A stretch of DNA of 55,976 bases from contig JACRAK010000029.1 of NCBI GenBank assembly GCA_016234725.1, positions 1 to 55,976 on the forward strand, read 5' to 3'. This DNA comes from Candidatus Azambacteria bacterium (GTDB lineage Bacteria > Patescibacteriota > Minisyncoccia > GWC2-36-17 > WO2-46-25). The stretch's first letter is position 1; the number at the start of each line of letters is the position of its first letter. The position numbers were made by a program, and so were the translations under genes. The notes beneath the pieces are model-generated. The model had not been told where the DNA came from, made no database searches, and was given only the letters and a program-made list of their open reading frames with translations. Below are positions 3,593 through 55,843 of this stretch, piece by piece.

Positions 3593-3851
3593 CTGTAAAT
3601 TACGAAATGTCAGATTCGAGGCGCGCCGAGCCGCGACTCCGCTGTCGCTCCGCTGGACTGCTGTTTGTTAGCCAATCACTTCTTACGACTCGGCCTTCGG
3701 CCTCCCTGCACTGCGTTTTGTGGCTTCGCTACGCTTCAGACAAAACGGGAGCTTGGACAAACAGGGAGCACCGTCACCGAAGCTGTACCGTAAGTACAGC
3801 GAGGCGAGACGCGGAGGCGGAACGAAGAAGATGGCGTTTCGTAATTTACAG
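3593..3851. mobile_element. MITE-like palindromic element (family A) containing two nested family B copies
   Basis: Terminal inverted repeats ctgtaaattacgaaatgtca / tggcgtttcgtaatttacag (18/20); family B at 3632-3769 with another B-like copy at 3684-3752. Confidence 0.75.
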
Positions 3852-10165: not shown

Positions 10166-10840
10166 AAGAATATATCTCCCCCCTTCTTCATCCCGCACGA
10201 TCTTTCCTTTATCAACGCTTACCACGCGCTTGTTGATCGTATTGATGATCTCGCGGTCATGCGTGGCTAAAATGATCGTCGTGCCAAGCTCGTTGATCTT
10301 CATGAGCAAGCGGATGATATCCCATGTGTTGAGCGGGTCGAGATTCCCCGTCGGCTCGTCGGCAATGATGATATCGGGCTGATGCACGAGCGCCCGCGCG
10401 ATAGCGACGCGCTGCTGTTCCCCGCCGGAAAGCTCGCTCGGGAAATTACGCGCCTTTTGCTCGAGCCCCACCAGCTGTAATATCTGCGGCACGTCTTCCT
10501 CTATTTCTTTTTTACTGCGGCCCGCGACCTCCATCGCGAACGCGACATTTTCATACGCCGTTTTCTGCGCGAGCAATTTAAAATCCTGAAACACCGTGCC
10601 GATCCGCCGGCGCAACATCGGCAATTCTTTGTGCGGGAGCGCGGTGATCTCCTTGCCGTCAAGGAACACCTTTCCTTCCGTCGGTTTTTCTTCGGCAATG
10701 AGAAGTTTAAGGAGCGTCGACTTGCCCGCGCCCGACTGGCCGACAATGAACACGAATTCTCCCTGCGCGATCTTCAGATCGACTTTGTCGAGCGCGGCGT
10801 GAGAATTATAATATTTGGAAATGTTTTCGAATACGATCAT
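10163..10840 (-). CDS. ftsE: Cell division ATP-binding protein FtsE
   Basis: GQSGAGKST, VFQDFKLL, LSGGEQQR and IADEPTGNLD. Confidence 0.95.
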   Translation of the reverse strand: MIVFENISKYYNSHAALDKVDLKIAQGEFVFIVGQSGAGKSTLLKLLIAEEKPTEGKVFLDGKEITALPHKELPMLRRRIGTVFQDFKLLAQKTAYENVAFAMEVAGRSKKEIEEDVPQILQLVGLEQKARNFPSELSGGEQQRVAIARALVHQPDIIIADEPTGNLDPLNTWDIIRLLMKINELGTTIILATHDREIINTINKRVVSVDKGKIVRDEEGGRYIL

Positions 10841-10844
10841 GGGG

Positions 10845-10945
10845 ACAGAAATTAGAATCTAGAATTTAGAAACTAGAAGTAGGATAGCACACAAACATCA
10901 AAGATTAAAGATTTTGTTTTCTAGCTTCTAGATTCTAATTTCTGT
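10845..10945. repeat. Heptamer-unit inverted repeat at the prfB-ftsE junction
   Basis: acagaaattagaatctagaa (10845-10864) is the exact reverse complement of 10926-10945; TAGAAnn tandem units. Confidence 0.8.
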
Positions 10946-12053
10946 TCCCAGCTCTGCTTCGATAAACAACGCGATGTCGCCCTCGAGTACATCTTTGACT
11001 TGCGAGGTCTCCGCGCCCGTGCGATGATCTTTTACCATTTGATATGGGTGCAATACATACGAGCGTATCTGACTGCCCCATTCTATCTTCACGCGCTCCC
11101 CTTTCAGCTCGGATATCGCGTGCGCTTTTTGCTTTTCAAGCTCCCCGGTCAGACGCGACACCAACAGCTTCATCGCCTGATCTTTATTTGCCTGCTGGTT
11201 GCGCTGGGACTGGCACGCCACGATAATGCCGGTCGGCTTATGATGAATGCGTATCGCCGTTTCGCGCTTGTTCACGTTTTGCCCGCCGGGACCCGAAGAA
11301 CGGAACGTATCGATCTCAAGATCGTCTTTGGGTATTTCGATGCTTTCTGTTTCCTCGATCTCGGGGATCACTTCGACGAACGCGAATGACGTGTGCCGCA
11401 GTTTCTGTGCCGAGAACGGCGACACGCGCACAAGCCGGTGCACGCCCATTTCTTTTTTCAGATTGCCGTACGCATATTTCCCGCTGATCTCCACCGTCGC
11501 ATTTTTCGTCACCGGCCCCTCTTCGCCTGTGCCCTCTCCGAAATGCTGATGCACTATCGTCACCGTCCACCCTTGGCTTTCCGCATACCGGATATACATG
11601 CGCAATAACATAGACGCCCAATCCTGCGCATCCTGCCCGCCCGCGCCCGCATACACGGAAAGAATGGCATTGTTTTTATCATATGTTCCTGAGAAAAGCT
11701 TCAGCCGGCGCGCACGCTCAAACGCCCGCTCAAGATCGGCAAGGTCTTTCTCAAGCTCCTGCTCAAACTGCTCCCGCTCTTTCTGATCGGCAACGGACGC
11801 AATAAACTCCCAGTCATGCGCGGCTTTGAGAAGCCGCGCACTAAAGCTTTCCCATTCTTTCACCTCTTCTTTTTTCGCATTGAGTTCTGCAGTGATGCCC
11901 GCCGCTTTTTTGTGGTCGTCCCAAAAATGCTCCTGTTGGGTTTGCTCCTCAAGCGCGAGAATGTCTTTATGGAGCGCCGCTAAGTCAAAGACGGTCCTTC
12001 ATCGTCTGAAGGCCCTCCGTAAGATTAGCTATTTTTTCTTTGAAATTGGTCAT
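10928..12053 (-). CDS. prfB: Peptide chain release factor 2, with programmed +1 frameshift
   Basis: ATG at 12053 gives [22 protein letters not shown], then CTT-TGA-C at 11990-11984; the +1 frame continues DLAALHKDI...; SPF and GGQ motifs. Confidence 0.95.
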
Positions 12054-14748: not shown

Positions 14749-14820
14749 CACGACTCGGCTTTCGGCCTCGCTGGGCTGCTATTTGTTGCCAATCGCTTCG
14801 CTCTCGGACAAATAGGGAGC
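14749..14820. mobile_element. Family B element inserted at the 3' end of tRNA-Gly(CCC)
   Basis: cacgactcggc...ccaatcgcttcgctctcggacaaatagggagc, preceded by gagc. Confidence 0.78.
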
Positions 14821-14888
14821 GGGTAGCGGGAATCGGACCCGCGTCTCAACCTTGGGAAGGTCGCATAATGCCATTATACTATACCCGC
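14818..14888 (-). tRNA. tRNA-Gly(CCC), CCA not encoded
   Basis: GCGGGTA...TACCCGC-T; loop TT-CCC-AA. Confidence 0.93.
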
Positions 14889-14899
14889 ATTTTTGTATC

Positions 14900-15073
14900 G
14901 CCAGCACCCGTTATTCTTTCTTTTATCTTAACGGAAGCCACGACTACACTATCGCTCCGCTGGACTGCTGTTTGTTGCCAATCGCTTCGCTCTTGGACAA
15001 ACAGGGAGCGCAGCCCTCCCATAATTATGATAAAAGGCGTGAGCGGATTAAAGAAAGAATGATGGATGCTGGC
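14900..15073. mobile_element. Family C palindromic element, copy 1, interrupted by a family B element (14939-15009)
   Basis: Stem gccagcacccgttattctttcttt / aaagaaagaatgatggatgctggc; cores ttaacggaagc[B]gcagccc and gcgtgagcgga. Confidence 0.82.
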
Positions 15074-15083
15074 AGAATATTTC

Positions 15084-22778: not shown

Positions 22779-22900
22779 CCCGCCTAAATTTTTGCACTCA
22801 TGTGCACGATGCTGGCCACATATCTGCTCTGGTTCTAGTATTGCAACCGTATAAAACCGTTTGTTTAAAGAGCTACTTTTAGTGCAAAAACTTAGGCGGG
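22779..22900. mobile_element. Family F palindromic element (CCCGCC...GGCGGG ends)
   Basis: TIR cccgcctaaatttttgcact / agtgcaaaaacttaggcggg (19/20), flanked by TCAA on both sides. Confidence 0.8.
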
Positions 22901-23098: not shown

Positions 23099-23125
23099 AA
23101 AAAGCGAGGAAATCCTCGCTTTTTT
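23099..23125. terminator. Intrinsic terminator downstream of rnpB
   Basis: aaaaagcgagga-aa-tcctcgcttttt. Confidence 0.7.
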
Positions 23126-23153
23126 GCATACGGGCATTCGGAGCAAACCGGTG

Positions 23154-23590
23154 AAGATGTACGTAAGCCGGATTCTGTTCCGCCAGCCGGAAAACCGGCC
23201 GGTCGGCGACGATCATTTCTCTTGTCACCGCATTACTGCGGTGATCATGCGACTACCTGCTTTCAAGGAAAGCATATTGTCTTGCACCCGACAAGGATTT
23301 GGCCGTTTCACCCCCGGTGTTGCCATCGGGGCTCGCCCTTGCTCGCTTGCGCGAGAAGGGCGCCTTCCGTCTTTCGTTGGAAAGCGTCTCTGTTCGCACC
23401 TCTAAGGTCGCCCTCGACGGCCGTTAGCCGCTGCCGTTGCCCGCCCAAATTTTTTATCTCTTGACTTTTTGTCGCGCATGCGCAAACGGCGTTTTTCGCG
23501 TTCGCAAAAAATAAAAAATTTGGGCGGGCGGGTGTCCGGACTTTCCTCTCCCCCGCGTTACCGCGTGAGAGCGATCGTCTGTGCATCTTA
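23154..23590 (-). ncRNA. rnpB: RNase P RNA with a family F-like hairpin insertion
   Basis: Universal motifs GAGGAAAGTCC and AACAGAATCCGGCTTA; P1 AAGATGCAC/GTACATCTT. Confidence 0.95.
23440..23528. mobile_element. Family F-like element inside rnpB
   Basis: cccgcccaaatttttta / taaaaaatttgggcggg, perfect 17-bp inverted repeat. Confidence 0.8.
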
Positions 23591-23654
23591 GCATCCCGGT
23601 TTGCTCCGGATGCCCGTAAAATATCCGATGAAATGAACAAAATATCGCCTTTAT

Positions 23655-23683
23655 AGTATACAAGAAAGCGTCTAAAAAGTCAA
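23655..23683 (-). promoter_or_regulatory. rnpB promoter
   Basis: TTGACT-17 nt-TATACT. Confidence 0.65.
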
Positions 23684-23892: not shown

Positions 23893-25959
23893 ATGCCCGC
23901 CGCAATAAAGTTCACAGAGATCCGCAAACGAGATGGGAGGATCGTTCCTTTTGACAAAGACAAGATCACTGCGGCGCTCGAAAAAGCGGGGTTCGCGACC
24001 GGTGAATTCGGGCATGATGTTGCGGCACATTTGATGCAGCGGGCGCTTGATGTCACGCAGGAGAAGATCGCGGGCAAGGTCCCCATGGTGGAAGAGATCC
24101 AAGATGCCGTTGAAGAGGCGCTCCTTGGCTCGCGCTACAAAAAAACCGCAAAGGCGTATATTATTTACCGCGACCAGCACGCAAAAATGCGTGAATTGGT
24201 GTCTGCGGCAAATGTGGACCTGGTAGACAGCTATCTGGAGAAGCTCGACTGGCAAGTGCGCGAGAACAGCAACATGTCGTACTCGCTCCAGGGGCTTAAT
24301 AACTACCTTTCTTCTGAGATCAGCAAGATCTACTGGATGAACAAGATCTATACGCCCGAGATCGCCAAAGCGCACATGGGAGGCGACCTCCACATCCACG
24401 ATCTCAACCTCCTTGCGTCGTATTGCGTCGGGTGGGACCTGCAACACCTGATCGCGGAGGGTTTTAAAGGCGTCCCCGGCAAAGCGGAAAGCAAACCGCC
24501 CAAGCATTTCCGCAGCGCACTCGGCCAAGTGGTGAACTTCTTTTATACACTCCAGGGGGAATCGGCCGGCGCACAGGCGTTCTCCAACTTCGATACACTG
24601 CTTGCGCCGTTCATCCGTTACGACAACCTTACCTATGACGAAGTAAAACAAGCGATGCAGGAGTTCATGTTCAATATGAACGTGCCGACGCGCGTCGGCT
24701 TCCAGACGCCGTTCACCAACATTACGATGGATATGCATCCGTCGTCGATCTACGCGAAGTCCCCCGTCGTCATCGGCGGCAAGCCGCAAAAAGAAACATA
24801 CGGCGAATTCCAAAAAGAGATGGACATGCTCAACAAAGCGTTCTTTGAAGTGATGATCGCGGGCGACGCGAAAGGCAGGCCGTTCACATTCCCCATTCCT
24901 ACCTATAACATCACCAATGATTTTGAATGGGACAATCCGAACTTCAAGCCGTTGTGGGAGATGACCGCAAAATACGGCATCCCGTATTTTGCGAACTTCG
25001 TGAATTCGGACATGTCCCCCGACGACTCGCGTTCCATGTGCTGCCGGTTGCGGCTTGACCTGCGCGCGCTTGAGCGCCGCGGCGGCGGCCTGTTCGGCGC
25101 CAACCCGCTCACCGGTTCCATCGGCGTTGTCACCATCAATCTCCCCCGTATCGGGTATCTCGCAAAATCAAAGGAAGATTTCTTTGCCCGCGTTGAAAAA
25201 CTGATGAAGATCGCGCGGGAAAGCCTTGAGATCAAGCGCAAATGCCTTGAGCGCTTCACTGACCGCGATCTGTATCCATATACGAAGTTCTACCTTGCGA
25301 GCGTGAAACAGCGCTTCAATCAATACTGGGCGAACCACTTCTCCACCATCGGCATCGTAGGGATGAACGAAGCATGTCTTAATCTCCTCAAAAAAAGCAT
25401 CACGGATGATGAGGGGCATGCATTCGCGGAATCAGTGCTTGATTTCATGCGCGATAAACTCCTTGAGTTCCAAGATGAGACCGGCAATCACTATAATCTT
25501 GAAGCGACCCCCGCCGAAGGCACCGCATACCGCCTCGCAAAGATAGACAAAGCGGCGTACCCAGACATTGTCTGCGCGAACGAAAAGCAATATAGAGAAG
25601 GCGCAAAGCCGTTTTACACGAACTCGACGCACCTCCCCGTCGGGCACACCGACGATATCTTTGAAGCGCTCGACCTTCAAGACAGCCTGCAAACGCGCTA
25701 TACCGGCGGCACCGTGCTCCATGGGTTCATCGGCGAAAGCATGCCGTCAGCGGAAGCAACGAAGAACTTGGTCAAAAAAGTCGTTTCGCAATACCGTTTG
25801 CCGTATTTCACGATCACACCGACATTCAGTATTTGCCCGACGCACGGATATATCCCCGGAGAACACTACTATTGCCCGCGCTGCGATGAAGCGCTTGAAC
25901 AACATAATGCCGTACCGGCACAAAAAAAGGTCGAAGAAGCAGCAGTGGTAAAAAAATAA
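23893..25959 (+). CDS. nrdD: Class III (anaerobic) ribonucleotide reductase with ATP cone, lacking the C-terminal glycyl-radical segment
   Basis: IRKRDGRIVPFD ATP cone; HIHDL; SMCCRL; ATPAEG; TPTFSICPTHGY...CPRC; no RVxGY. Confidence 0.93.
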   Translation: MPAAIKFTEIRKRDGRIVPFDKDKITAALEKAGFATGEFGHDVAAHLMQRALDVTQEKIAGKVPMVEEIQDAVEEALLGSRYKKTAKAYIIYRDQHAKMRELVSAANVDLVDSYLEKLDWQVRENSNMSYSLQGLNNYLSSEISKIYWMNKIYTPEIAKAHMGGDLHIHDLNLLASYCVGWDLQHLIAEGFKGVPGKAESKPPKHFRSALGQVVNFFYTLQGESAGAQAFSNFDTLLAPFIRYDNLTYDEVKQAMQEFMFNMNVPTRVGFQTPFTNITMDMHPSSIYAKSPVVIGGKPQKETYGEFQKEMDMLNKAFFEVMIAGDAKGRPFTFPIPTYNITNDFEWDNPNFKPLWEMTAKYGIPYFANFVNSDMSPDDSRSMCCRLRLDLRALERRGGGLFGANPLTGSIGVVTINLPRIGYLAKSKEDFFARVEKLMKIARESLEIKRKCLERFTDRDLYPYTKFYLASVKQRFNQYWANHFSTIGIVGMNEACLNLLKKSITDDEGHAFAESVLDFMRDKLLEFQDETGNHYNLEATPAEGTAYRLAKIDKAAYPDIVCANEKQYREGAKPFYTNSTHLPVGHTDDIFEALDLQDSLQTRYTGGTVLHGFIGESMPSAEATKNLVKKVVSQYRLPYFTITPTFSICPTHGYIPGEHYYCPRCDEALEQHNAVPAQKKVEEAAVVKK

Positions 25960-26158: not shown

Positions 26159-26268
26159 CCACCGTCATTTTCAATTCTTTCTTTAATCCGTTCACGCTCT
26201 TGTATGTAAGGATCATTGAAGAGCTGCACTTCCGTTAAAATAAAAGAAAGAATTGAAAATGACGGTGG
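26159..26268. repeat. Family C element, copy 2 (reverse orientation)
   Basis: Stem ccaccgtcattttcaattctttcttt / aaagaaagaattgaaaatgacggtgg plus conserved cores. Confidence 0.82.
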
Positions 26269-26993: not shown

Positions 26994-27103
26994 CAGTCGC
27001 TCCCTGCATTCTTTCTTTTATCTTAACGGAAGAGCAGCCCTTTCATATTATCTTATAAATAAAGGGCGTGAGCGGATTAAAGGAAGAATGCAGGGAGCAA
27101 CTG
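26994..27103. repeat. Family C element, copy 3
   Basis: Stem cagtcgctccctgcattct / agaatgcagggagcaactg; cores ttaacggaagagcagccc and ggcgtgagcgga. Confidence 0.82.
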
Positions 27104-30398: not shown

Positions 30399-30432
30399 AC
30401 TATATTAATGCTTAACTTATAATGCAACCTTT

Positions 30433-30490
30433 TCTTTCACGTTTTTATGTTTTAAGTTTAACGTTTCACGTTTTATGTTTCAAGTTTTAT
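30433..30490. repeat. Heptamer tandem array overlapping the pgk stop
   Basis: tttcacg ttttatg ttttaag tttaacg tttcacg ttttatg tttcaag ttttatg. Confidence 0.8.
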
Positions 30491-31667
30491 GCAGAAGCGC
30501 GTCTATGCCGGGCATCGGCTCGCCGGCGAGAAATTCGAGCATTGCGCCGCCGCCCGTGGAAATAAAATCGATTTTTTTAGAAAGCCCGAGCTTATCAACG
30601 CTCGCCGCCGAGTCACCCCCGCCTACGATAGTGAATGCCTTGCTTTTTGCGACCGTCCGCGCGAACGCTTCAGTGCCCGCCGCAAACGGCGCAAGCTCGG
30701 AAAGCCCGAGCGGCCCGTTCCAGATGATTGTGCGCGCACCGGCGGCAATGTGATCGAACAACCCCGCGGTATCGGGGCCGATATCCAAGATAAATTCGTC
30801 TTCAGCGACCCTCCCGACCCCCACTATCCTCCCCACTGCGTCAACGGAGATCTTTTTTGCCACCACCACGTCAACCGGCAAGTGGATCTTGGTGGACATC
30901 CAATTCACTTTTTTGAGCTTCTCAACTATTTCTTTATCGAGCTTCGATTTGCCCACCGCGATCCCCTGCGCCTGCAAAACGTGATTCGCGATCATCCCGC
31001 CAAGCAAGATATTATCCGCTTTATCAAAGAACCGCTCAATGAGCTTGATCTTCGTTTCGATCTTTGCGCCGCCCATGGCGATCAGCAACGGGACCTTTGG
31101 CTTCATATACGCCCGATGGAGCACCGCAACCTCCTGTGCAAGCAAAAGCCCCGCATACGAAGGAAGAAAACGCGTGATCATTGCGATCGAAGCGTGCGCG
31201 CGATGCGACACCGAAAACGCCTCGTTCACATAGACATCGCCAAGCGACGCAAGGCCGCGAGCAAATTCTTCATCGTTCTGCTCCTCGCCTTTATGAAACC
31301 GAAGGTTCTCAAGCAGCACGATCTCTCCCGGCTTCATCTTTGCCACTGCCTTGTGCGGCAGTGACCCGATGCATTCCGATACAAAACGAACCGGTTTCTT
31401 TAGGTCTTTCGCAAGTCGGCGGGCAAGCCGGCGAACACTAAAACACGCCCGTTCTTTCCCATTCAGAGCGCCTGCGGGCGGCCTGCCAAAATGAGTAATA
31501 AGAATGATCTTCGCTTTTTTACGCGCAAGCAACCGCAGCGTAGGAATGGTTTTTATGATCCTGAAATCGTCTTCGATCACGCCGTCTTCCACCGCCACGT
31601 TGAAATCGACCCGTACCAGTACCCGCTTGCCTTTTACATCCGCCTTGTCGATGGTTTTTAGCCTCAT
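30480..31667 (-). CDS. pgk: Phosphoglycerate kinase
   Basis: RVDFNV, LLENLRF, WNGPLG, GGGDS and ISTGGGA. Confidence 0.96.
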   Translation of the reverse strand: MRLKTIDKADVKGKRVLVRVDFNVAVEDGVIEDDFRIIKTIPTLRLLARKKAKIILITHFGRPPAGALNGKERACFSVRRLARRLAKDLKKPVRFVSECIGSLPHKAVAKMKPGEIVLLENLRFHKGEEQNDEEFARGLASLGDVYVNEAFSVSHRAHASIAMITRFLPSYAGLLLAQEVAVLHRAYMKPKVPLLIAMGGAKIETKIKLIERFFDKADNILLGGMIANHVLQAQGIAVGKSKLDKEIVEKLKKVNWMSTKIHLPVDVVVAKKISVDAVGRIVGVGRVAEDEFILDIGPDTAGLFDHIAAGARTIIWNGPLGLSELAPFAAGTEAFARTVAKSKAFTIVGGGDSAASVDKLGLSKKIDFISTGGGAMLEFLAGEPMPGIDALLHKT

Positions 31668-33104: not shown

Positions 33105-33140
33105 CGCGCTTCTTTAATTCTTATCAATCGGTTTTACCTT

Positions 33141-33250
33141 CTCCGGTCATTCTTAATTCTTTCTTACATCCGCTCACGCCCTTCTCTATAACAATTAATG
33201 AAGGGCTGCGCTTCCGTTAAGATTCCAGAAAAAATTAAGAATGACCGGGG
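33141..33250. repeat. Family C element, copy 4 (reverse orientation)
   Basis: Stem ctccggtcattcttaatt / aattaagaatgaccgggg; cores tccgctcacgccc and gggctgcgcttccgttaa. Confidence 0.82.
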
Positions 33251-35906: not shown

Positions 35907-36293
35907 TTATTCTTTTTTCCTGTTTCTGTCGATCCAGCTTTGTAAAATAAGCGCGGCGGAACTCTGGTCTAGCGTGTTCTTTTTTGCGCCGTCACGTGTG
36001 GCCATTTTCGTCGTGAATATTTCATTCTCATACACCACCGGTATCTGCACGAATCGCGCGAGCGCATCGCCAAACATCCGTATCGTCCGCATGAACGGCG
36101 ACACTTCCCCGATGAGCATCGGCATACCAATGACGATCTGCACCGGCTTTTCCGCGTCGCATATTTTTTTGATCTCGGCAAGCGTTGAAGATATATTCTC
36201 GATCGTCGCATGCGGAAACGCGATCATACCGTTGTCGTCCGACACCGCGATGCCAATGCGCTTCTCACCGTAATCGATGCCGAGATATTTCAT
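35907..36293 (-). CDS. ruvX: YqgF/RuvX pre-16S rRNA nuclease
   Basis: LGIDYGEKRIGIAVSD and DQSSAALILQ. Confidence 0.92.
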   Translation of the reverse strand: MKYLGIDYGEKRIGIAVSDDNGMIAFPHATIENISSTLAEIKKICDAEKPVQIVIGMPMLIGEVSPFMRTIRMFGDALARFVQIPVVYENEIFTTKMATRDGAKKNTLDQSSAALILQSWIDRNRKKE

Positions 36294-36299
36294 AAAACA

Positions 36300-36389
36300 G
36301 GAAGCTTGAATCTTGAAACCTAAAACTCGAAACAAAAATTATGAATATGTCATACCCCCTGTTTCATGTTTCACGCGTCATGCTTCAAG
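36300..36389. repeat. Inverted heptamer arrays at the map-ruvX junction
   Basis: gaagcttgaatcttgaaacctaaaactcgaaac ... gtttcatgtttcacgcgtcatgcttcaag. Confidence 0.75.
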
Positions 36390-41180: not shown

Positions 41181-41570
41181 TCACCACACTTCACAGATAA
41201 CCTCTCCGCCAACGCGCTTTCGACGCGCCTCTCTATCGGTCATTAATCCTTCGGGTGTTGAGATCACCGCGATGCCAAAACCCTCTCGAATAGAATGCAT
41301 TTTTGCGGCGGGTGCATACACTCGCTGGCCGGGCTTCGATACGCGCGCAATACTGCTGATCGCGGAAGAGCCATCTTTCTGATATTTCAATTTCACCGCA
41401 ATGGTTTTGCGTATTTTTTTCCCCTTCTTTTCAAACCCGTCGATGAAATTCTCCCGCTTTAAGATCGCGAGTATCGCCGACTTGATCTGTGAATACGGAA
41501 TACTCACGGTCTCATGACCGGCTGCTTTCGCATTGCGTATTCGCGTGAGCATGTCTGCAATAGGATCCAT
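41181..41570 (-). CDS. rpsH: 30S ribosomal protein S8
   Basis: MDPIADMLTRIRNA; SKPGQRVY. Confidence 0.97.
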   Translation of the reverse strand: MDPIADMLTRIRNAKAAGHETVSIPYSQIKSAILAILKRENFIDGFEKKGKKIRKTIAVKLKYQKDGSSAISSIARVSKPGQRVYAPAAKMHSIREGFGIAVISTPEGLMTDREARRKRVGGEVICEVW

Positions 41571-41669
41571 AAATATCTTATAACCTGTATCGTAAATCTT
41601 GGAACATAAAACGTAGATTCTGAAATATGAATTGGGTTTTACGTTTCATGTTACCTGTTTCATGTTTTC
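41571..41669. repeat. Inverted heptamer arrays at the rpsN-rpsH junction
   Basis: taacctg tatcgta aatcttg gaacata aaacgta ... ttttacg tttcatg ttacctg ttttcatg. Confidence 0.75.
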
Positions 41670-41853
41670 ACCAGCTTGATCGCGTTACTCCGGGGATCTC
41701 GCCTTTTTGCGCAAGCTCCCGGAAACAGATCCTGCACAGATCGAATGCGCTGATATAGCCGCGCACCCGTCCGCATCGAAAACACCGATTTACTTTTCGT
41801 GTCGAGAATTTTGGTTTCCGTTTTGACCGCGCAATGGTTGATTTCTTTGCCAT
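41668..41853 (-). CDS. rpsN: 30S ribosomal protein S14, Zn-binding type
   Basis: RCFRCGR...LCRICFRE. Confidence 0.96.
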
Positions 41854-47687: not shown

Positions 47688-47732
47688 GTTCCCTGTTTGT
47701 CCAAGAGCGAAGCGATTGGCTCACAAACAGCA
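47688..47732. repeat. Truncated family B copy (reverse) at the rplC-rplD junction
   Basis: Reverse complement tgctgtttgtgagccaatcgcttcgctcttggacaaacagggaac matches 14966-15009. Confidence 0.8.
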
Positions 47733-48496: not shown

Positions 48497-48823
48497 CTAA
48501 ACCATCTTTATCTCGATGTCTACCCCCGCGGGCAGATTCAAATTAGTAAGGGCATCGATGGTTTTCGGGGTCGGCTCGCCGATATCGATCAGCCGCTTGT
48601 GCACCCGCATCTCGAAATGCTCGCCTGAACTTTTGTGCACGAACGTCGAACGATTCACCGCGTACTTTTTGATCTCGGTCGGCAATGGGATCGGCCCAAA
48701 CACCGAAACGCCCTGCCGTTCAGCCGCCTCCACGATCTGGCGCGCGCTGTTATCGATGATCTTATTATCATACGCTTTGATCTTTATCCTCAGTTTTTGT
48801 GTGGCTCCTTCTTTTACTGCCAT
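48497..48823 (-). CDS. rpsJ: 30S ribosomal protein S10
   Basis: RIKIKAYD; GPIPLPT; HKRLIDI. Confidence 0.97.
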
Positions 48824-48825
48824 AT

Positions 48826-48925
48826 CTTGAATCTTAAATCCTGAATCGTGAAGCTTGAATCTTGAGTTTCGGGTTTTATGTTGCGAGTTTCAAGTTTCAA
48901 GTTGTGTGTTCCAAGCTTCATGTGT
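48826..48925. repeat. Inverted heptamer arrays at the tuf-rpsJ junction
   Basis: cttgaat cttaaat cctgaat cgtgaag cttgaat ... gtttcgg gttttat gttgcga gtttcaa gtttcaa. Confidence 0.82.
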
Positions 48926-50521: not shown

Positions 50522-50881
50522 TTAAAACGGTAAATCCTCTAAATGAATGCCATTTCCCCGACTATTTACCGTAAGAGACCTTTCCTCCTCTTGTTCGCGG
50601 TCAAGCGAGTTCAGCAATGCCTTGATCTCCGCCTCCTCCGTGCCTGAAATATCCTGCGGCACCGCCCCTGTATCGTAATCGATCAGCTTCTGAATGATGC
50701 TTGCATCGTCCAGCTGCTGCTGGCGCGGATCCGCCCACATGCGCACGCCTTCGATCTTCTTTGCTTTCACGCTTTCCTGATACTCCTGAAACGGCACCAC
50801 CACATACGCGGGCTTGCCGTTTTCCATCACCACAACGCCTTTGGTGATCGATTGTAATATTTTGGAGATGTCGTCGAACAT
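50522..50881 (-). CDS. Hypothetical protein with a Phd/YefM-like N-terminal fold
   Basis: KGVVVMENGKPAYVVVPFQEYQ resembles the Phd/YefM beta-hairpin; acidic tail ending EDLPF. Confidence 0.65.
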   Translation of the reverse strand: MFDDISKILQSITKGVVVMENGKPAYVVVPFQEYQESVKAKKIEGVRMWADPRQQQLDDASIIQKLIDYDTGAVPQDISGTEEAEIKALLNSLDREQEEERSLTVNSRGNGIHLEDLPF

Positions 50882-50961
50882 AAATCTTGGATCATGAATC
50901 TTGGATCGTGAAACCTGCGTTTCACATTTCCTGTTTCATGTTTCATGTTTTAAGTTTCAAG
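50882..50961. repeat. Inverted heptamer arrays after fusA
   Basis: aaatcttggatcatgaatcttggatcgtgaaac ... gtttcacatttcctgtttcatgtttcatgttttaagtttcaag. Confidence 0.82.
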
Positions 50962-50962
50962 G

Positions 50963-53068
50963 TTACTTTATCTTCCCCGCAATGATGTCTTCGGCAATAT
51001 TTTTCGGCACCTCGTCATAATGGGAGAATTCCATCGAGAATGAAGCGCGCCCTTCCGTCATGGAGCGGATCTGCGTGGAATAGCCGAACATCTTCGCGAG
51101 AGGCACCTTTGCGGTGATGACCTTGATATTGCCCCGGTCATCGATGCTTTCGATCTTGCCGCGTTTTGAGTTCAGGTCGCCGGTCACATCGCCCATGAAT
51201 TGCGGGGGGGTGATCGCCACCACCTTCATGACCGGTTCCAGGATCACGGGGTCTGCGCGCCGCACGCATTCCTGGAATGCCATGGAGCCCGCGATCTTGA
51301 ACGCCGCCTCGGACGAGTCGACTTCATGGTATGAACCGTCATAAATGATCGCCTTCACGTCCTTGATCGGATATCCGGCAACCACACCTTTATCAAGCGC
51401 CTCTTTCACGCCTTTTTCAACTGCCGGTATGTATTCTTGCGGCACGACGCCGCCTTTCAATTCGCTTTCGAATTCAAACCCTGCGCCGCGTTCACGCGGC
51501 TCTACACGCAAGCGCACATGGCCATACTGGCCGCGACCGCCGCTTTGCTTGATATACTTTCCTTCCGCTTCCGCGGTCTTCCTGATGGTCTCCCGATACG
51601 CCACCTGCGGCGTACCCACGTTCGCGCTCACGCCGAACTCGCGGAACATGCGGTCAACGATGATCTCCAAATGAAGCTCGCCCATACCTGAAATAATGGT
51701 TTCTGCCGTTTCCTGGTCAACCCGGATGCGGAACGTCGGATCCTCTTCTCCAAGCCGGCGAAGCGCAAGACCCATTTTTTCCTGATCCACTTTTGTTTTC
51801 GGTTCGATGCGGATCGAAATGACCGGTTCAGGGAATGTGATGCGTTCTAAAATGATCGGTTTATCCTCGTCGCACAGCGTGTCGCCGGTGGTGGTGGTCT
51901 TTAACCCGACCGCGGCGGCGATCTCGCCCGCAAAGATCTGGTCTACTTCTTCCCGCTGATTTGCGTGCAAGCGAAGAATGCGGCTGATGCGCTCTTTCTC
52001 TCCTTTCGTGGAATTGTATACATATGACCCTTTCGTCAGCGTTCCGGAATAAATACGGAAGAATGCAAGCGAGCCGACGAACGGATCGGTCGCGATCTTG
52101 AACGCAAGCGCTGAGAACGGTTCCGCGTCGTTCGGACTTCGCACGATCTCTGCATCGGTATTTGGGTCGATGCCGGTCACCGCGCCGCGATCAAGCGGCG
52201 ACGGAAGATAATCAATGACGGCGTCGAGCACCAACTGCACTCCTTTGTTCTTAAGCGCCGTACCGCACAATATGGGGTTAATGGTTCCTGCGATCGTCAG
52301 CCGTCTGATCACCGCCTTGATATCGGCGACCGGAAGCGCCTCTCCCGCAAGATATTTTTCCATCATCGCATCGTCTTCGGACGCGATGGCGTCGATCATT
52401 TCTTCCCGGTATTTTGCCGCCCGTTCTTTTTCCGTATCGGGGATCTCTTTACTATCGAGGATCTCGCCGTGGCCTCCCGAGAACGTAATGAATTTTTCCG
52501 TGATCAGATCGATCACGCCTTCGAATTTCTCTTCTTCACCGACGGGGATCTGGATAGGCACCGCTTTGGGGTTCAGCCGCTCCCGAATGGACGCAACGTC
52601 TTTTTCCCACCGCGCGCCGGTACGATCGAGCTTATTGATAAAACAAACACGCGGCACTTTATATTTGTCCGCCTGATGCCATACCGTTTCCGATTGCGGC
52701 TCCACGCCCGCTACGCCGTCAAACACCACGACGCCGCCATCGAGTACGCGGAGCGAGCGCTCCACTTCAACGGTGAAATCCACGTGTCCCGGCGTATCGA
52801 TCAAATTGATGCGATGTTCAAACGCCTTATTTCCCTTTTGGTAGGTCGGGATCCAAAAACAGGTGGTCGCGGCGGCGGTGATCGTAATACCGCGTTCGCG
52901 TTCCTGTTCCATCCAATCCATGACCGCCGCGCCTTCATGTACTTCGCCGATCTTATGCGACACGCCCGTATAAAAAAGAACGCGCTCAGACACGGTGGTC
53001 TTGCCCGCATCAATGTGCGCGATAATGCCGATATCTCGTACTTTCTCTAACGGGTATGCTCGTGTCAT
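50963..53068 (-). CDS. fusA: Elongation factor G
   Basis: AHIDAGKTT; DTPGHVDF; GMGELHL; QSGGRGQYG. Confidence 0.98.
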
Positions 53069-53154
53069 AAATATCGTATAACCTGTAACTTAAATCTTGA
53101 AACGTAGGAACAGGAACCCGTGATTCACGTTTCAAGTTACACGCTTCATGCTTT
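53069..53154. repeat. Inverted heptamer arrays at the rpsG-fusA junction
   Basis: taacctg taactta aatcttg aaacgta ... attcacg tttcaag ttacacg cttcatg. Confidence 0.8.
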
Positions 53155-55156: not shown

Positions 55157-55218
55157 ATGCCCCCTATCATAGCAGACTCTTGATTATCTTGAAAGAACAT
55201 GCTACCTTAACTTGTACC

Positions 55219-55289
55219 GTGAAACATGAAACTTGAAACTTATTATTTATCGTTTCTATGATTCAAGATTCATGCTTTACGATTCATGA
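55219..55289. repeat. Inverted heptamer arrays upstream of rpmB
   Basis: gtgaaac atgaaac ttgaaac ... gattcaa gattcat gctttac gattcat. Confidence 0.78.
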
Positions 55290-55292
55290 ATT

Positions 55293-55481
55293 ATGCCACG
55301 ATCATGTACTGTGTGCGGAAAGACATCTGCATTGTCCACCGTCATCAGAAAATTAAGAGGGAAATTCAACCCGACCACAAAGAAGCGAAAATACCCAAAC
55401 CTCCAGTGGGCGGTCATTGACAGCGCCCGCGTTCGCGCATGCACGCAATGCATCCGAACCGCGAACAAAGCAAGTAAATAA
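55293..55481 (+). CDS. rpmB: 50S ribosomal protein L28
   Basis: MPRSCTVCGK...KRKYPNLQW...ACTQCIR. Confidence 0.9.
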   Translation: MPRSCTVCGKTSALSTVIRKLRGKFNPTTKKRKYPNLQWAVIDSARVRACTQCIRTANKASK

Positions 55482-55554: not shown

Positions 55555-55843
55555 CGGGCTGTAGTACCTGCCCGCCATAAGCCTAACACGTGGTCGCCAC
55601 GGTATTCGCCGGAATATATTACTCTGTACTCCTGTGTATTTCTCTGACAGGCGATTGGCAGGCGGGCAATGGCAGTACGCATGCACTTGCCCGCCCAAGT
55701 TTTTCATCGGGCCATCGTATAGTGGTAGTACGCAAGGCTGGGGGTCTTGTAGTCTGGGTTCGATTCCCAGTGGCCCGAAAGATAAAAACTTAGGCGGGTG
55801 AAGGGTGCATGTAGTCCGAGTTCGATTCTCGGCATCCCGACCA
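55555..55843 (+). tRNA. Outer tRNA-Pro (probably UGG) interrupted by two palindromic insertions; function uncertain
   Basis: Exons CGGGCTGTAGTA | CAATGGCAGTACGCATGCACTTG | GGGTGCATGTAGTCCGAGTTCGATTCTCGGCATCCCGACCA; C1-G72 and A73 Pro identity, encoded CCA; inserts at 55567-55666 and about 55690-55802. Confidence 0.75.
55708..55778 (+). tRNA. Inner tRNA-Pro(GGG), intact, nested in the anticodon-loop insertion of the outer tRNA
   Basis: CGGGCCA...TGGCCCG-A; anticodon arm CAAGG-CTGGGGG-TCTTG; T-arm CTGGG-TTCGATT-CCCAG. Confidence 0.93.

Follow-up and report, generated by a model that had tools for sequence, protein, structure and literature searches.

The closest parallels to the locus studied here come from several distinct systems. 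The Rickettsia palindromic elements (RPE) have been found in protein genes as well as in tmRNA and M1 (RNase P) RNA (Ogata et al. 2000, 2002, cited through Delihas 2007, PMC2229807); as summarised there, they are palindromes of 100-150 nt, some intergenic, others forming in-frame parts of proteins or lying within RNase P RNA, and they are presumed to be neutral. Palindromes in RNase P RNA are thus already known, and the insert described below adds one more case in which an outer helix tolerates a palindrome. The bacterial MITEs Correia, ERIC and RUP appear in the MITE table of the same review (PMC2229807). The Ssn nucleases (cd10448 GIY-YIG) cut their own NTS/SRM hairpin repeats as single-stranded DNA, and their authors note an IS-like architecture (Chenal et al. 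2025, PMC11893778); the accessible text of that paper does not mention Patescibacteria and shows neither mobility nor insertion into RNA genes. In CPR bacteria, rRNA genes carry short non-intron insertions as well as GIY-YIG-encoding ones, which are not introns and do not look like homing (Tsurumaki et al. 2024, PMC11270868), and CPR RNase P RNAs can have large helix extensions (Lui et al. 2021, PMC8172020). The main texts of these two papers describe no inverted-repeat family and do not link the short inserts to GIY-YIG units, tRNAs or P5.1, and their supplements may list such inserts. Finally, type B RNase P RNA has a P5.1 helix with an L5.1-L15.1 contact (PMC5066622). A literature search that reached few subscription journals, and main texts rather than supplements, returned no description of the arm family reported here, of nested Patescibacteria tRNAs or of a P5.1-like helix in CPR.

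The window, i.e. the whole 55,976-nt stretch of Candidatus Azambacteria DNA that was analysed, is contig C19 of a 923-kb genome (labelled G000 below). It carries the only RNase P match of the whole genome, with the following features.

23655..23683, minus strand: sigma-70-like promoter upstream of rnpB, by consensus match only (10 of 12)
23149..23590, minus strand: rnpB, RNase P RNA with a class A core (Rfam RF00010, 111.3 bits, E 3e-33)
23538..23548, minus strand: GAGGAAAGTCC motif in the region of the P4 5' strand
23531..23534, minus strand: P5 5' strand, partner 23285-23288 (from the Rfam structure line, the partner strand located separately)
23439..23529, minus strand: palindromic element, a hairpin of 91 nt in the place of P5.1
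23511..23528: second arm of the perfect 18-bp inverted repeat
23440..23457: first arm of the same repeat (consensus of the family: CCCGCCYAARTTTT)
23431..23435, minus strand: P7 5' strand, partner 23290-23294 (register backed by compensatory changes in relatives, read by eye)
23099..23124, minus strand: terminator-like hairpin downstream of rnpB, a consensus match only

The score lies above the RF00010 gathering threshold of 100, as expected of a class A RNA. The alignment to a bacterial RNase P model that the original prediction had proposed places an unmodelled insert after the GAGGAAAGUCC motif. Since the P5 and P7 strands were located on its two sides, the hairpin lies between P5 and P7. 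The P1 pairing is apparently longer than in the model and reaches to about 23130-23620, as read from the sequence. P17 is deleted in the alignment, the position of the P6 5' strand is occupied by the hairpin, and no P17/P6 pseudoknot is visible; in other words, the class A pseudoknot of P6 with P16/P17 was not found. The genome encodes RnpA and the RNA-free HARP enzyme was not found in it, so the RNase P RNA is likely essential.

The inverted repeat at 23440-23528 is perfect and begins 9 nt past the GAGGAAAGTCC motif, just as had been predicted from the window; its length had been slightly undercounted as 17 bp. There are 18 perfect pairs inward from 23440/23528 and one further outer pair (23439/23529), which makes a stem of 19 contiguous Watson-Crick pairs that extends to about 25 pairs via two G-U pairs and ends in a variable tip. 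The two G-U pairs are invariant and are possible only on the RNA strand. The folding energy of the 111-nt stretch is -49 kcal/mol (z = -6.3), and none of 200 shuffles was equally stable. The 91 nt fold as a single hairpin, and neither a group I nor a group II intron core was found, as no intron family is among the Rfam matches of the window.

In the reading we prefer, a non-coding palindromic element replaced the P5-P7 helix through a DNA-level swap that was likely driven by a GIY-YIG nuclease, and the element is likely retained as an outward stem. On the sequence comparisons below we give this reading as a whole a probability of about 0.65.

The P5-P7 site was compared in 75 RNase P loci of this Patescibacteria class, i.e. 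35 that include this genome and four congeners, and 40 chosen across families from 150 listed matches. A clear hairpin between P5 and P7 was present in 70 of the 75 genes, weak in one, absent in three and unplaced in one. A script parsed 54 genes and showed hairpins of 5 or more pairs in all but one, which had a weak hairpin (median segment 25.5 nt, range 16-175); the 21 genes read by eye gave 17 hairpins, three absences and one unplaceable case. The P5 and P7 pairs change in step among the relatives, again as read by eye. The original prediction had assumed that only a few nucleotides belong here, which is true of type A RNAs such as the Rfam consensus; in this class a hairpin is the norm. 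The event is thus the replacement of one helix by another at a tolerant site, rather than an insertion into a tight junction.

The position between P5 and P7 is what we take to be the P5.1 site of type B RNAs. The window RNA resembles type B, as far as the source cited above describes it, in having a hairpin at this position in an RNA that lacks the P6 pseudoknot. It differs from type B in its class A core, in the absence of P15.1 from the Rfam alignment and in the helix loop, whose sequence is unconserved across the class. A fixed loop contact of the L5.1-L15.1 kind is unlikely because the length varies so widely (16-175 nt) and the loop is without conservation.

The long form of the helix is found in four of the five genomes of the genus (G000, G001, G002 and G004) and in five metagenome contigs. 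An assembly artefact was considered as an explanation and was rejected, since the same insert occurs in three further genomes and the five metagenome contigs. In the 8 distinct long-form sequences, 23 of the 24 stem pairs are invariant and 99% of the cells are paired, and 29 of the 40 tip positions are variable. The counted stem alignment of these 8 sequences contains no compensatory pair, i.e. the covariation is zero; one change to G-C from U-A in G002, beside an alignment gap, was left out of this count. The invariance of the stem could therefore reflect recent ancestry or DNA-level homogenisation.

The 91-nt helix is quite probably retained in the mature RNase P RNA, and removal of the hairpin from the RNA appears unlikely. 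Retention is favoured over excision because the tRNA genes hit by the element are dead, because its insertions in proteins keep the frame (39 nt) and because it is found in both orientations. Of the two fates offered in the original prediction, folding out as a closed stem is thus the better one. A closed stem does not disturb the register of P5 and P7, and an RNA with such an outward-pointing helix can therefore be expected to fold and function. Cutting, or even joining, is enzymatically possible, since RNase III is encoded and a RtcB/archease-like operon is present. We note that in the latter (G000 C1:1057-3460, L273) genes for 2',5'-RNA-ligase-like, archease-like and RtcB proteins (Pfam) stand in one run; the ligase-like and archease-like names follow sequence resemblance, and we take the run to be an RNA repair operon in a reduced genome.

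The presence of RNase III makes it conceivable, if unlikely, that the long stem behaves as an intervening sequence, i.e. that RNase III cuts it, nothing is rejoined, and two RNA pieces are held together by P5 and P7; among the alternatives this is the strongest. The stem is long enough for this enzyme, the arms found in the window also occur in 16S and 23S genes, and a cut-without-joining fate has been suggested for short non-intron inserts of CPR 23S rRNA in the text of PMC11270868. One relative's RNA-library contig moreover ends 3 nt short of the hairpin base, but this end is equally explained by strain differences at the helix or by reverse-transcription stops, and the contig belongs to another organism. 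One metatranscriptome (0.05 share) placed on the window and on the relative L016 yielded short contigs of other organisms, at best about 92% alike to the window and none spanning the hairpin; no relative that was compared matched this metatranscriptome, at most 4 of 10 alleles being shared. The helix of most relatives, at about 20 nt, is too short for RNase III cutting and is apparently tolerated. Even if it took place, such cutting would be a side effect that leaves the origin of the element unaffected.

The origin is a separate matter, and here the arms are informative. Both arms of the RNase P copy are identical to the 14-nt family consensus, which gave no exact match in the shuffles. The interior behaves differently from the arms: its 55 nt reach a best local score of 20 against the other copies, which 7 of 200 shuffles matched (18 comparisons). 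An interior common to the RNase P copy and the other window copies was therefore rejected, and only the arms are shared. One of the two 4-nt ends of the RNase P copy resembles the family consensus and the other does not, and no direct repeat flanks the copy.

In G003, the genus member that lacks the long form, P5.1 and P19 carry another arm family, and the window arm family is found at P3; in other words, close relatives exchange whole arm families among P3, P5.1 and P19. At this same site the element is present in a 34-nt version (L220) in G082, which belongs to a different taxonomic family, and the close relative L016 has a short helix with outer bases similar to those of the element. The outer helices of these RNase P RNAs have thus been repeatedly overwritten by palindromes. 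The original prediction had set a homologous helix, inherited across the lineage and unrelated to the dispersed repeats, against its own reading. The inherited helix is there; its version in the window is related to the repeats.

One could suppose instead that a native P5.1-like helix was lengthened in place and that its likeness to the repeats comes from shared short GC-rich ends or from later gene conversion. The helix is indeed class-wide, 10 of the 75 start with a CCGCC/CCTCC-type end (four of these ten being this insert), the interior of the RNase P copy is unmatched and the long form is conserved in the genus. However, the exact match of both arms to the consensus, the exchange of arm families among P3, P5.1 and P19, each of which also surrounds a GIY-YIG gene, and the presence of the same arms at the same site in an unrelated taxonomic family all argue against lengthening in place, and we consider it improbable.

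The arms belong to a dispersed family. Allowing no more than one mismatch, the 923-kb genome contains 44 matches to the consensus, compared with 0, 2 and 2 for three dinucleotide-shuffled versions; the list of arm pairs has 23 entries. These include the palindromes at 22779-22900 and 55690-55798, whose arms had been predicted to resemble those of the RNase P insert; they do belong to the same arm family, and their interiors show no clear match to that of the insert. Across the family the arms are shared and the interiors differ between copies. The copies that matter in what follows are these.

22779..22900: intergenic 122-nt copy with a 4-nt direct repeat
55686..55802, plus strand: copy including its 4-nt ends, carrying tRNA-Pro(GGG)
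55707..55779, plus strand: intact tRNA-Pro(GGG), nested in the element
55555..55843, plus strand: dead outer tRNA-Pro, interrupted twice (by sequence reading)
G000 C27:5103-5137, C1:1445-1479 and C30:3410-3442: short copies within the reading frames of alaS, a 2',5'-RNA-ligase-like gene and a proline-rich ORF
G000 C1:21921-22207 (L239): 287-nt GIY-YIG element with variant arms and the family 4-nt ends, adjoining tRNA-Ala
G000 C13:29324-29607 (L241): second GIY-YIG gene in a hairpin, with a different arm family and similar 4-nt ends

The intergenic copy shares its interior with four other genome copies and lies 38 nt ahead of the point where a 462-aa sugar-transferase-like ORF begins. Two genes, alaS and the 2',5'-RNA-ligase-like one, contain element copies as clean in-frame additions of 39 nt (+13 codons); these additions are missing in the matched relatives (5 of 5 and 4 of 4, respectively). 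Among the copies both orientations relative to the transcript occur. A two-arm scan of public genomes gave at least 120 loci; of the 80 titled records 72 come from Patescibacteria, 4 have no assignment and 4 bear the label of another taxon. An Rfam scan of 20 selected public loci placed copies in 16S rRNA (3), 23S rRNA (2) and a TPP riboswitch (1), and at four public loci (L079, L156, L164 and L178) RNase P motifs seem, by eye, to surround the element, with no RNase P call by Rfam.

Several side observations concern the same genome. A 150-nt variant-arm copy in an apparent 23S rRNA gene (G000 C21:8298-8447; L049) is common to a genome of another genus (G005). The 5' ends of some tRNA-Gly genes are the last bases of an element arm (G000 C6:15574 and C16:57283; G003 C35:855-859). 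The window also holds hairpins of 7-nt tandem units (10840-10950, 30415-30505, 36282-36389, 41568-41671, 48810-48922, 50870-50968, 53066-53150 and 55202-55295) and further dispersed palindrome families (3629-3724, 14750-15077, 26159-26268, 26994-27103, 33139-33250 and 47690-47720); two copies of the latter flank ORFs for a 705-aa anaerobic ribonucleotide reductase-like and a radical-SAM-like protein, and others lie around tRNA-Gly. Two different tmRNA genes are called in the assembly (G000 C23:42408-42813 and C30:60094-60478), for which 3.8% contamination is reported.

As a palindrome family of RPE type, with lengths in the 100-150-nt range and with intergenic copies, copies that extend protein reading frames and copies within RNA genes, the present family is close to the Rickettsia elements. 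It differs from them, as far as they are described in PMC2229807, in lineage (another phylum) and, to judge by that description, in arm sequence. Moreover, unlike the RPE of that account, its copies share only the arms, enclose interiors unrelated to one another (among them whole tRNAs and a nuclease gene) and replace existing helices; a candidate mobiliser is at hand, whereas none is named there for the RPE.

This candidate emerged from larger copies. In 401 genomes of the class, searched for arms 200-500 nt apart (which covers elements up to about 530 nt), five long two-arm elements were found. Three of them enclose a GIY-YIG ORF of 79-87 aa, one of these lying in a 23S gene, and the other two are non-coding rRNA inserts; GIY-YIG is the only kind of ORF between the arms in this size range. 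PF01541 scored above its cut-off in all five proteins of 79-87 aa, and NCBIfam and PDB searches gave weak GIY-YIG/UPF0213 matches. Homologues occur in 95 of 151 genomes. Among the best 30 of 271 matches, 16 were closed by an inverted repeat versus 0 of 57 shifted control windows; six of the 30 loci have the window arm family and 14 have no clear inverted repeat.

The same pattern is seen within the genomes compared most closely. The protein of the C1 element has 85 aa. In G001-G005, 7 of 15 short GIY-YIG matches are enclosed by inverted repeats; G003 has a 288-nt GIY-YIG element with standard arms next to tRNA-Gly. In G005 the RNase P helix P3 is itself a 319-nt GIY-YIG element (L286; G005:C24, about 24120-24440) antisense to the RNA, and a second G005 GIY-YIG element has the arms of the G003 P5.1 helix. 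Three arm families were thus found both as bare RNase P hairpins and around a nuclease gene. As a further observation, the arms of the G005 P19 helix are those of the P3 GIY-YIG element of the same RNA. A GIY-YIG gene with the window arms was not found in G001, G002 and G004, though all three keep the insert. The proteins with window arms form no single supported clade (4 changes, in a tree resolved too poorly to reveal co-evolution with the arms).

The likeness to the Ssn system, as described in PMC11893778, is considerable: in both there is a small single-domain GIY-YIG gene (79-87 aa here, i.e. below about 100 aa) flanked by hairpin repeats that are also multi-copy alone. In Ssn, however, separate 28-nt hairpins stand on each side of the gene, whereas here one inverted repeat closes the whole gene, and the published SRM motif has no match in six elements and two in the whole genome. 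That Ssn enzymes cut their own hairpins as single strands offers a plausible chemistry for the spread of the element. The link to the nuclease is an association; on balance we lean slightly towards the view that a GIY-YIG nuclease spread the element.

REP doublets are paired with RAYT transposases. Like MITEs and REP doublets, the family consists of small, non-autonomous, multi-copy units with terminal inverted repeats that fold into a long stem. An ordinary element of this kind, moved by a DDE or HUH (RAYT-type) transposase with the GIY-YIG genes as passengers, and with the RNA fate as in our preferred reading, would fit the arms as terminal inverted repeats, the 13 of 120 public copies with 4-nt direct repeats and two Y1_Tnp (HUH/RAYT-like) matches (G000 C26:4896-5129 and C30:11093-11329; L066 and L067) that could be an alternative mobiliser. 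The family nevertheless differs from MITEs and REP doublets in that TA termini are missing, no transposase was found between the arms and target duplications are mostly lacking. Direct repeats are absent from 80 of the 120 copies, from the RNase P copy and from the clean protein insertions, and 11 of the 13 repeats are one and the same tetranucleotide, so that they resemble element ends and not target duplications. All ORFs between the arms were GIY-YIG (3 of 5 elements, searched up to about 530 nt). The junction types also differ: in tRNAs 2 nt are replaced, the two proteins have clean insertions, and the 13 copies have 4-nt direct repeats; we know of no end rule among those of IS982, IS1380, IS91 and IS200/IS605 that fits them all. 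On the elements searched, up to about 530 nt, we hold a transposase of this kind to be hardly probable as the mover, though a longer copy that bears one may exist. A subfamily (public loci; G000 C6:3387 and C13:7267) has the same tetranucleotide at both ends, often right at an apparent start codon.

The tRNA genes give the most direct view of the junctions. The element at 55690-55798 had been placed in a tRNA-Pro gene by the original prediction, and so it is, except that the host gene is dead and an intact tRNA-Pro(GGG) lies inside the element. The dead gene is broken in the anticodon loop by the arm-family element and near the D arm by a second hairpin family (about 55568-55667). The same nested layout is found elsewhere in the genome for Thr, Glu, Ala, Leu and a second Pro, and in more decayed form for Trp and Val. 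In five of the eight anticodon-region cases (Thr, Glu, Pro, Ala and Leu) the element with its 4-nt ends exactly replaces a CA or TG dinucleotide of the loop, and in these five the nested tRNA would have its anticodon loop completed by that dinucleotide. No single cut-and-join can restore the 7-nt loop in the five cases, and the nested intact tRNA has the same anticodon. Among the 120 public copies 13 enclose a tRNA, and 9 of these 13 keep the dinucleotide junction rule, by reading. Nested tRNAs of the same isotype lie at G000 C10:23520-23705, C13:9270-9550, C13:16740-16910, C18:780-930, C26:14390-14640, C26:15180-15440 and C29:8470-8890, in addition to 55555-55843 of the window; some sites have two or three inserts from two hairpin families, and on C26 the 5' half together with the left arm is duplicated in tandem (65 nt).

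That no single excision restores the loop, and that both orientations occur, is our main argument for movement at the DNA level rather than splicing at the RNA level. An RNA-level intron, precisely removed and its flanks joined by RtcB, is very improbable for the same two reasons and because the interrupted tRNAs decay, with nested copies taking their place, and the protein copies preserve the reading frame, even though RtcB has archease-like and 2',5'-ligase-like neighbours in a reduced genome and the element ends form a small internal loop beside the long stem.

Returning to the DNA-level swap, we suggest the following course of events. The ancestor had a short hairpin at the P5.1 position, which would have been exchanged for a nuclease-less copy of the element. 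This may have happened once, in the ancestor of the four genus members, with vertical inheritance since, and similar outer bases, as in the short helix of L016, may have guided the swap. The nuclease would recognise its own hairpin on single-stranded DNA, as Ssn nucleases do, and its nick would seed a new copy elsewhere, either the arms alone or the arms plus the gene, the target being a further hairpin or loop with a short end sequence in common. Copies at the outer helices of essential RNAs could survive thanks to the perfect closing stem, the ribozyme being presumably indifferent to the length of the helix, whereas copies in tRNA loops would kill the gene and survive only with a replacement tRNA aboard.

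A wider possibility is put forward tentatively. Patescibacteria may host an undescribed, transposase-free class of 'gene in a hairpin' elements of about 290 nt, in which a single-domain GIY-YIG nuclease copies the arms onto other hairpins and loops. There would then be several arm families with a nuclease apiece, and these would continually overwrite the outer helices in RNase P RNA and rRNA, extend proteins by in-frame loops and give rise to tRNA genes nested in tRNA genes; even the P5.1-like helix seen across the class may be such a copy, eroded and domesticated. The inserts described for CPR rRNA and RNase P RNA resemble the present family, according to the main texts of the papers cited at the outset, in occurring in the same hosts and at the tops or bases of stem-loops.

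What the locus means for these bacteria goes beyond one gene. The P5.1-position helix is a class-wide feature of class A RNase P RNAs that lowers the model score and helps to explain missed annotations. One arm sequence links swollen CPR RNase P and rRNA helices, nested tRNAs, in-frame peptide insertions and tiny GIY-YIG genes, which gives a named enzyme and substrate to test for the spread of short non-intron inserts and non-homing GIY-YIG genes in CPR. It also bears on how palindromic repeats move without a transposase. The arm family is thus a handle on a testable class of mobile elements, and as such it is more interesting than the RNase P insert alone.
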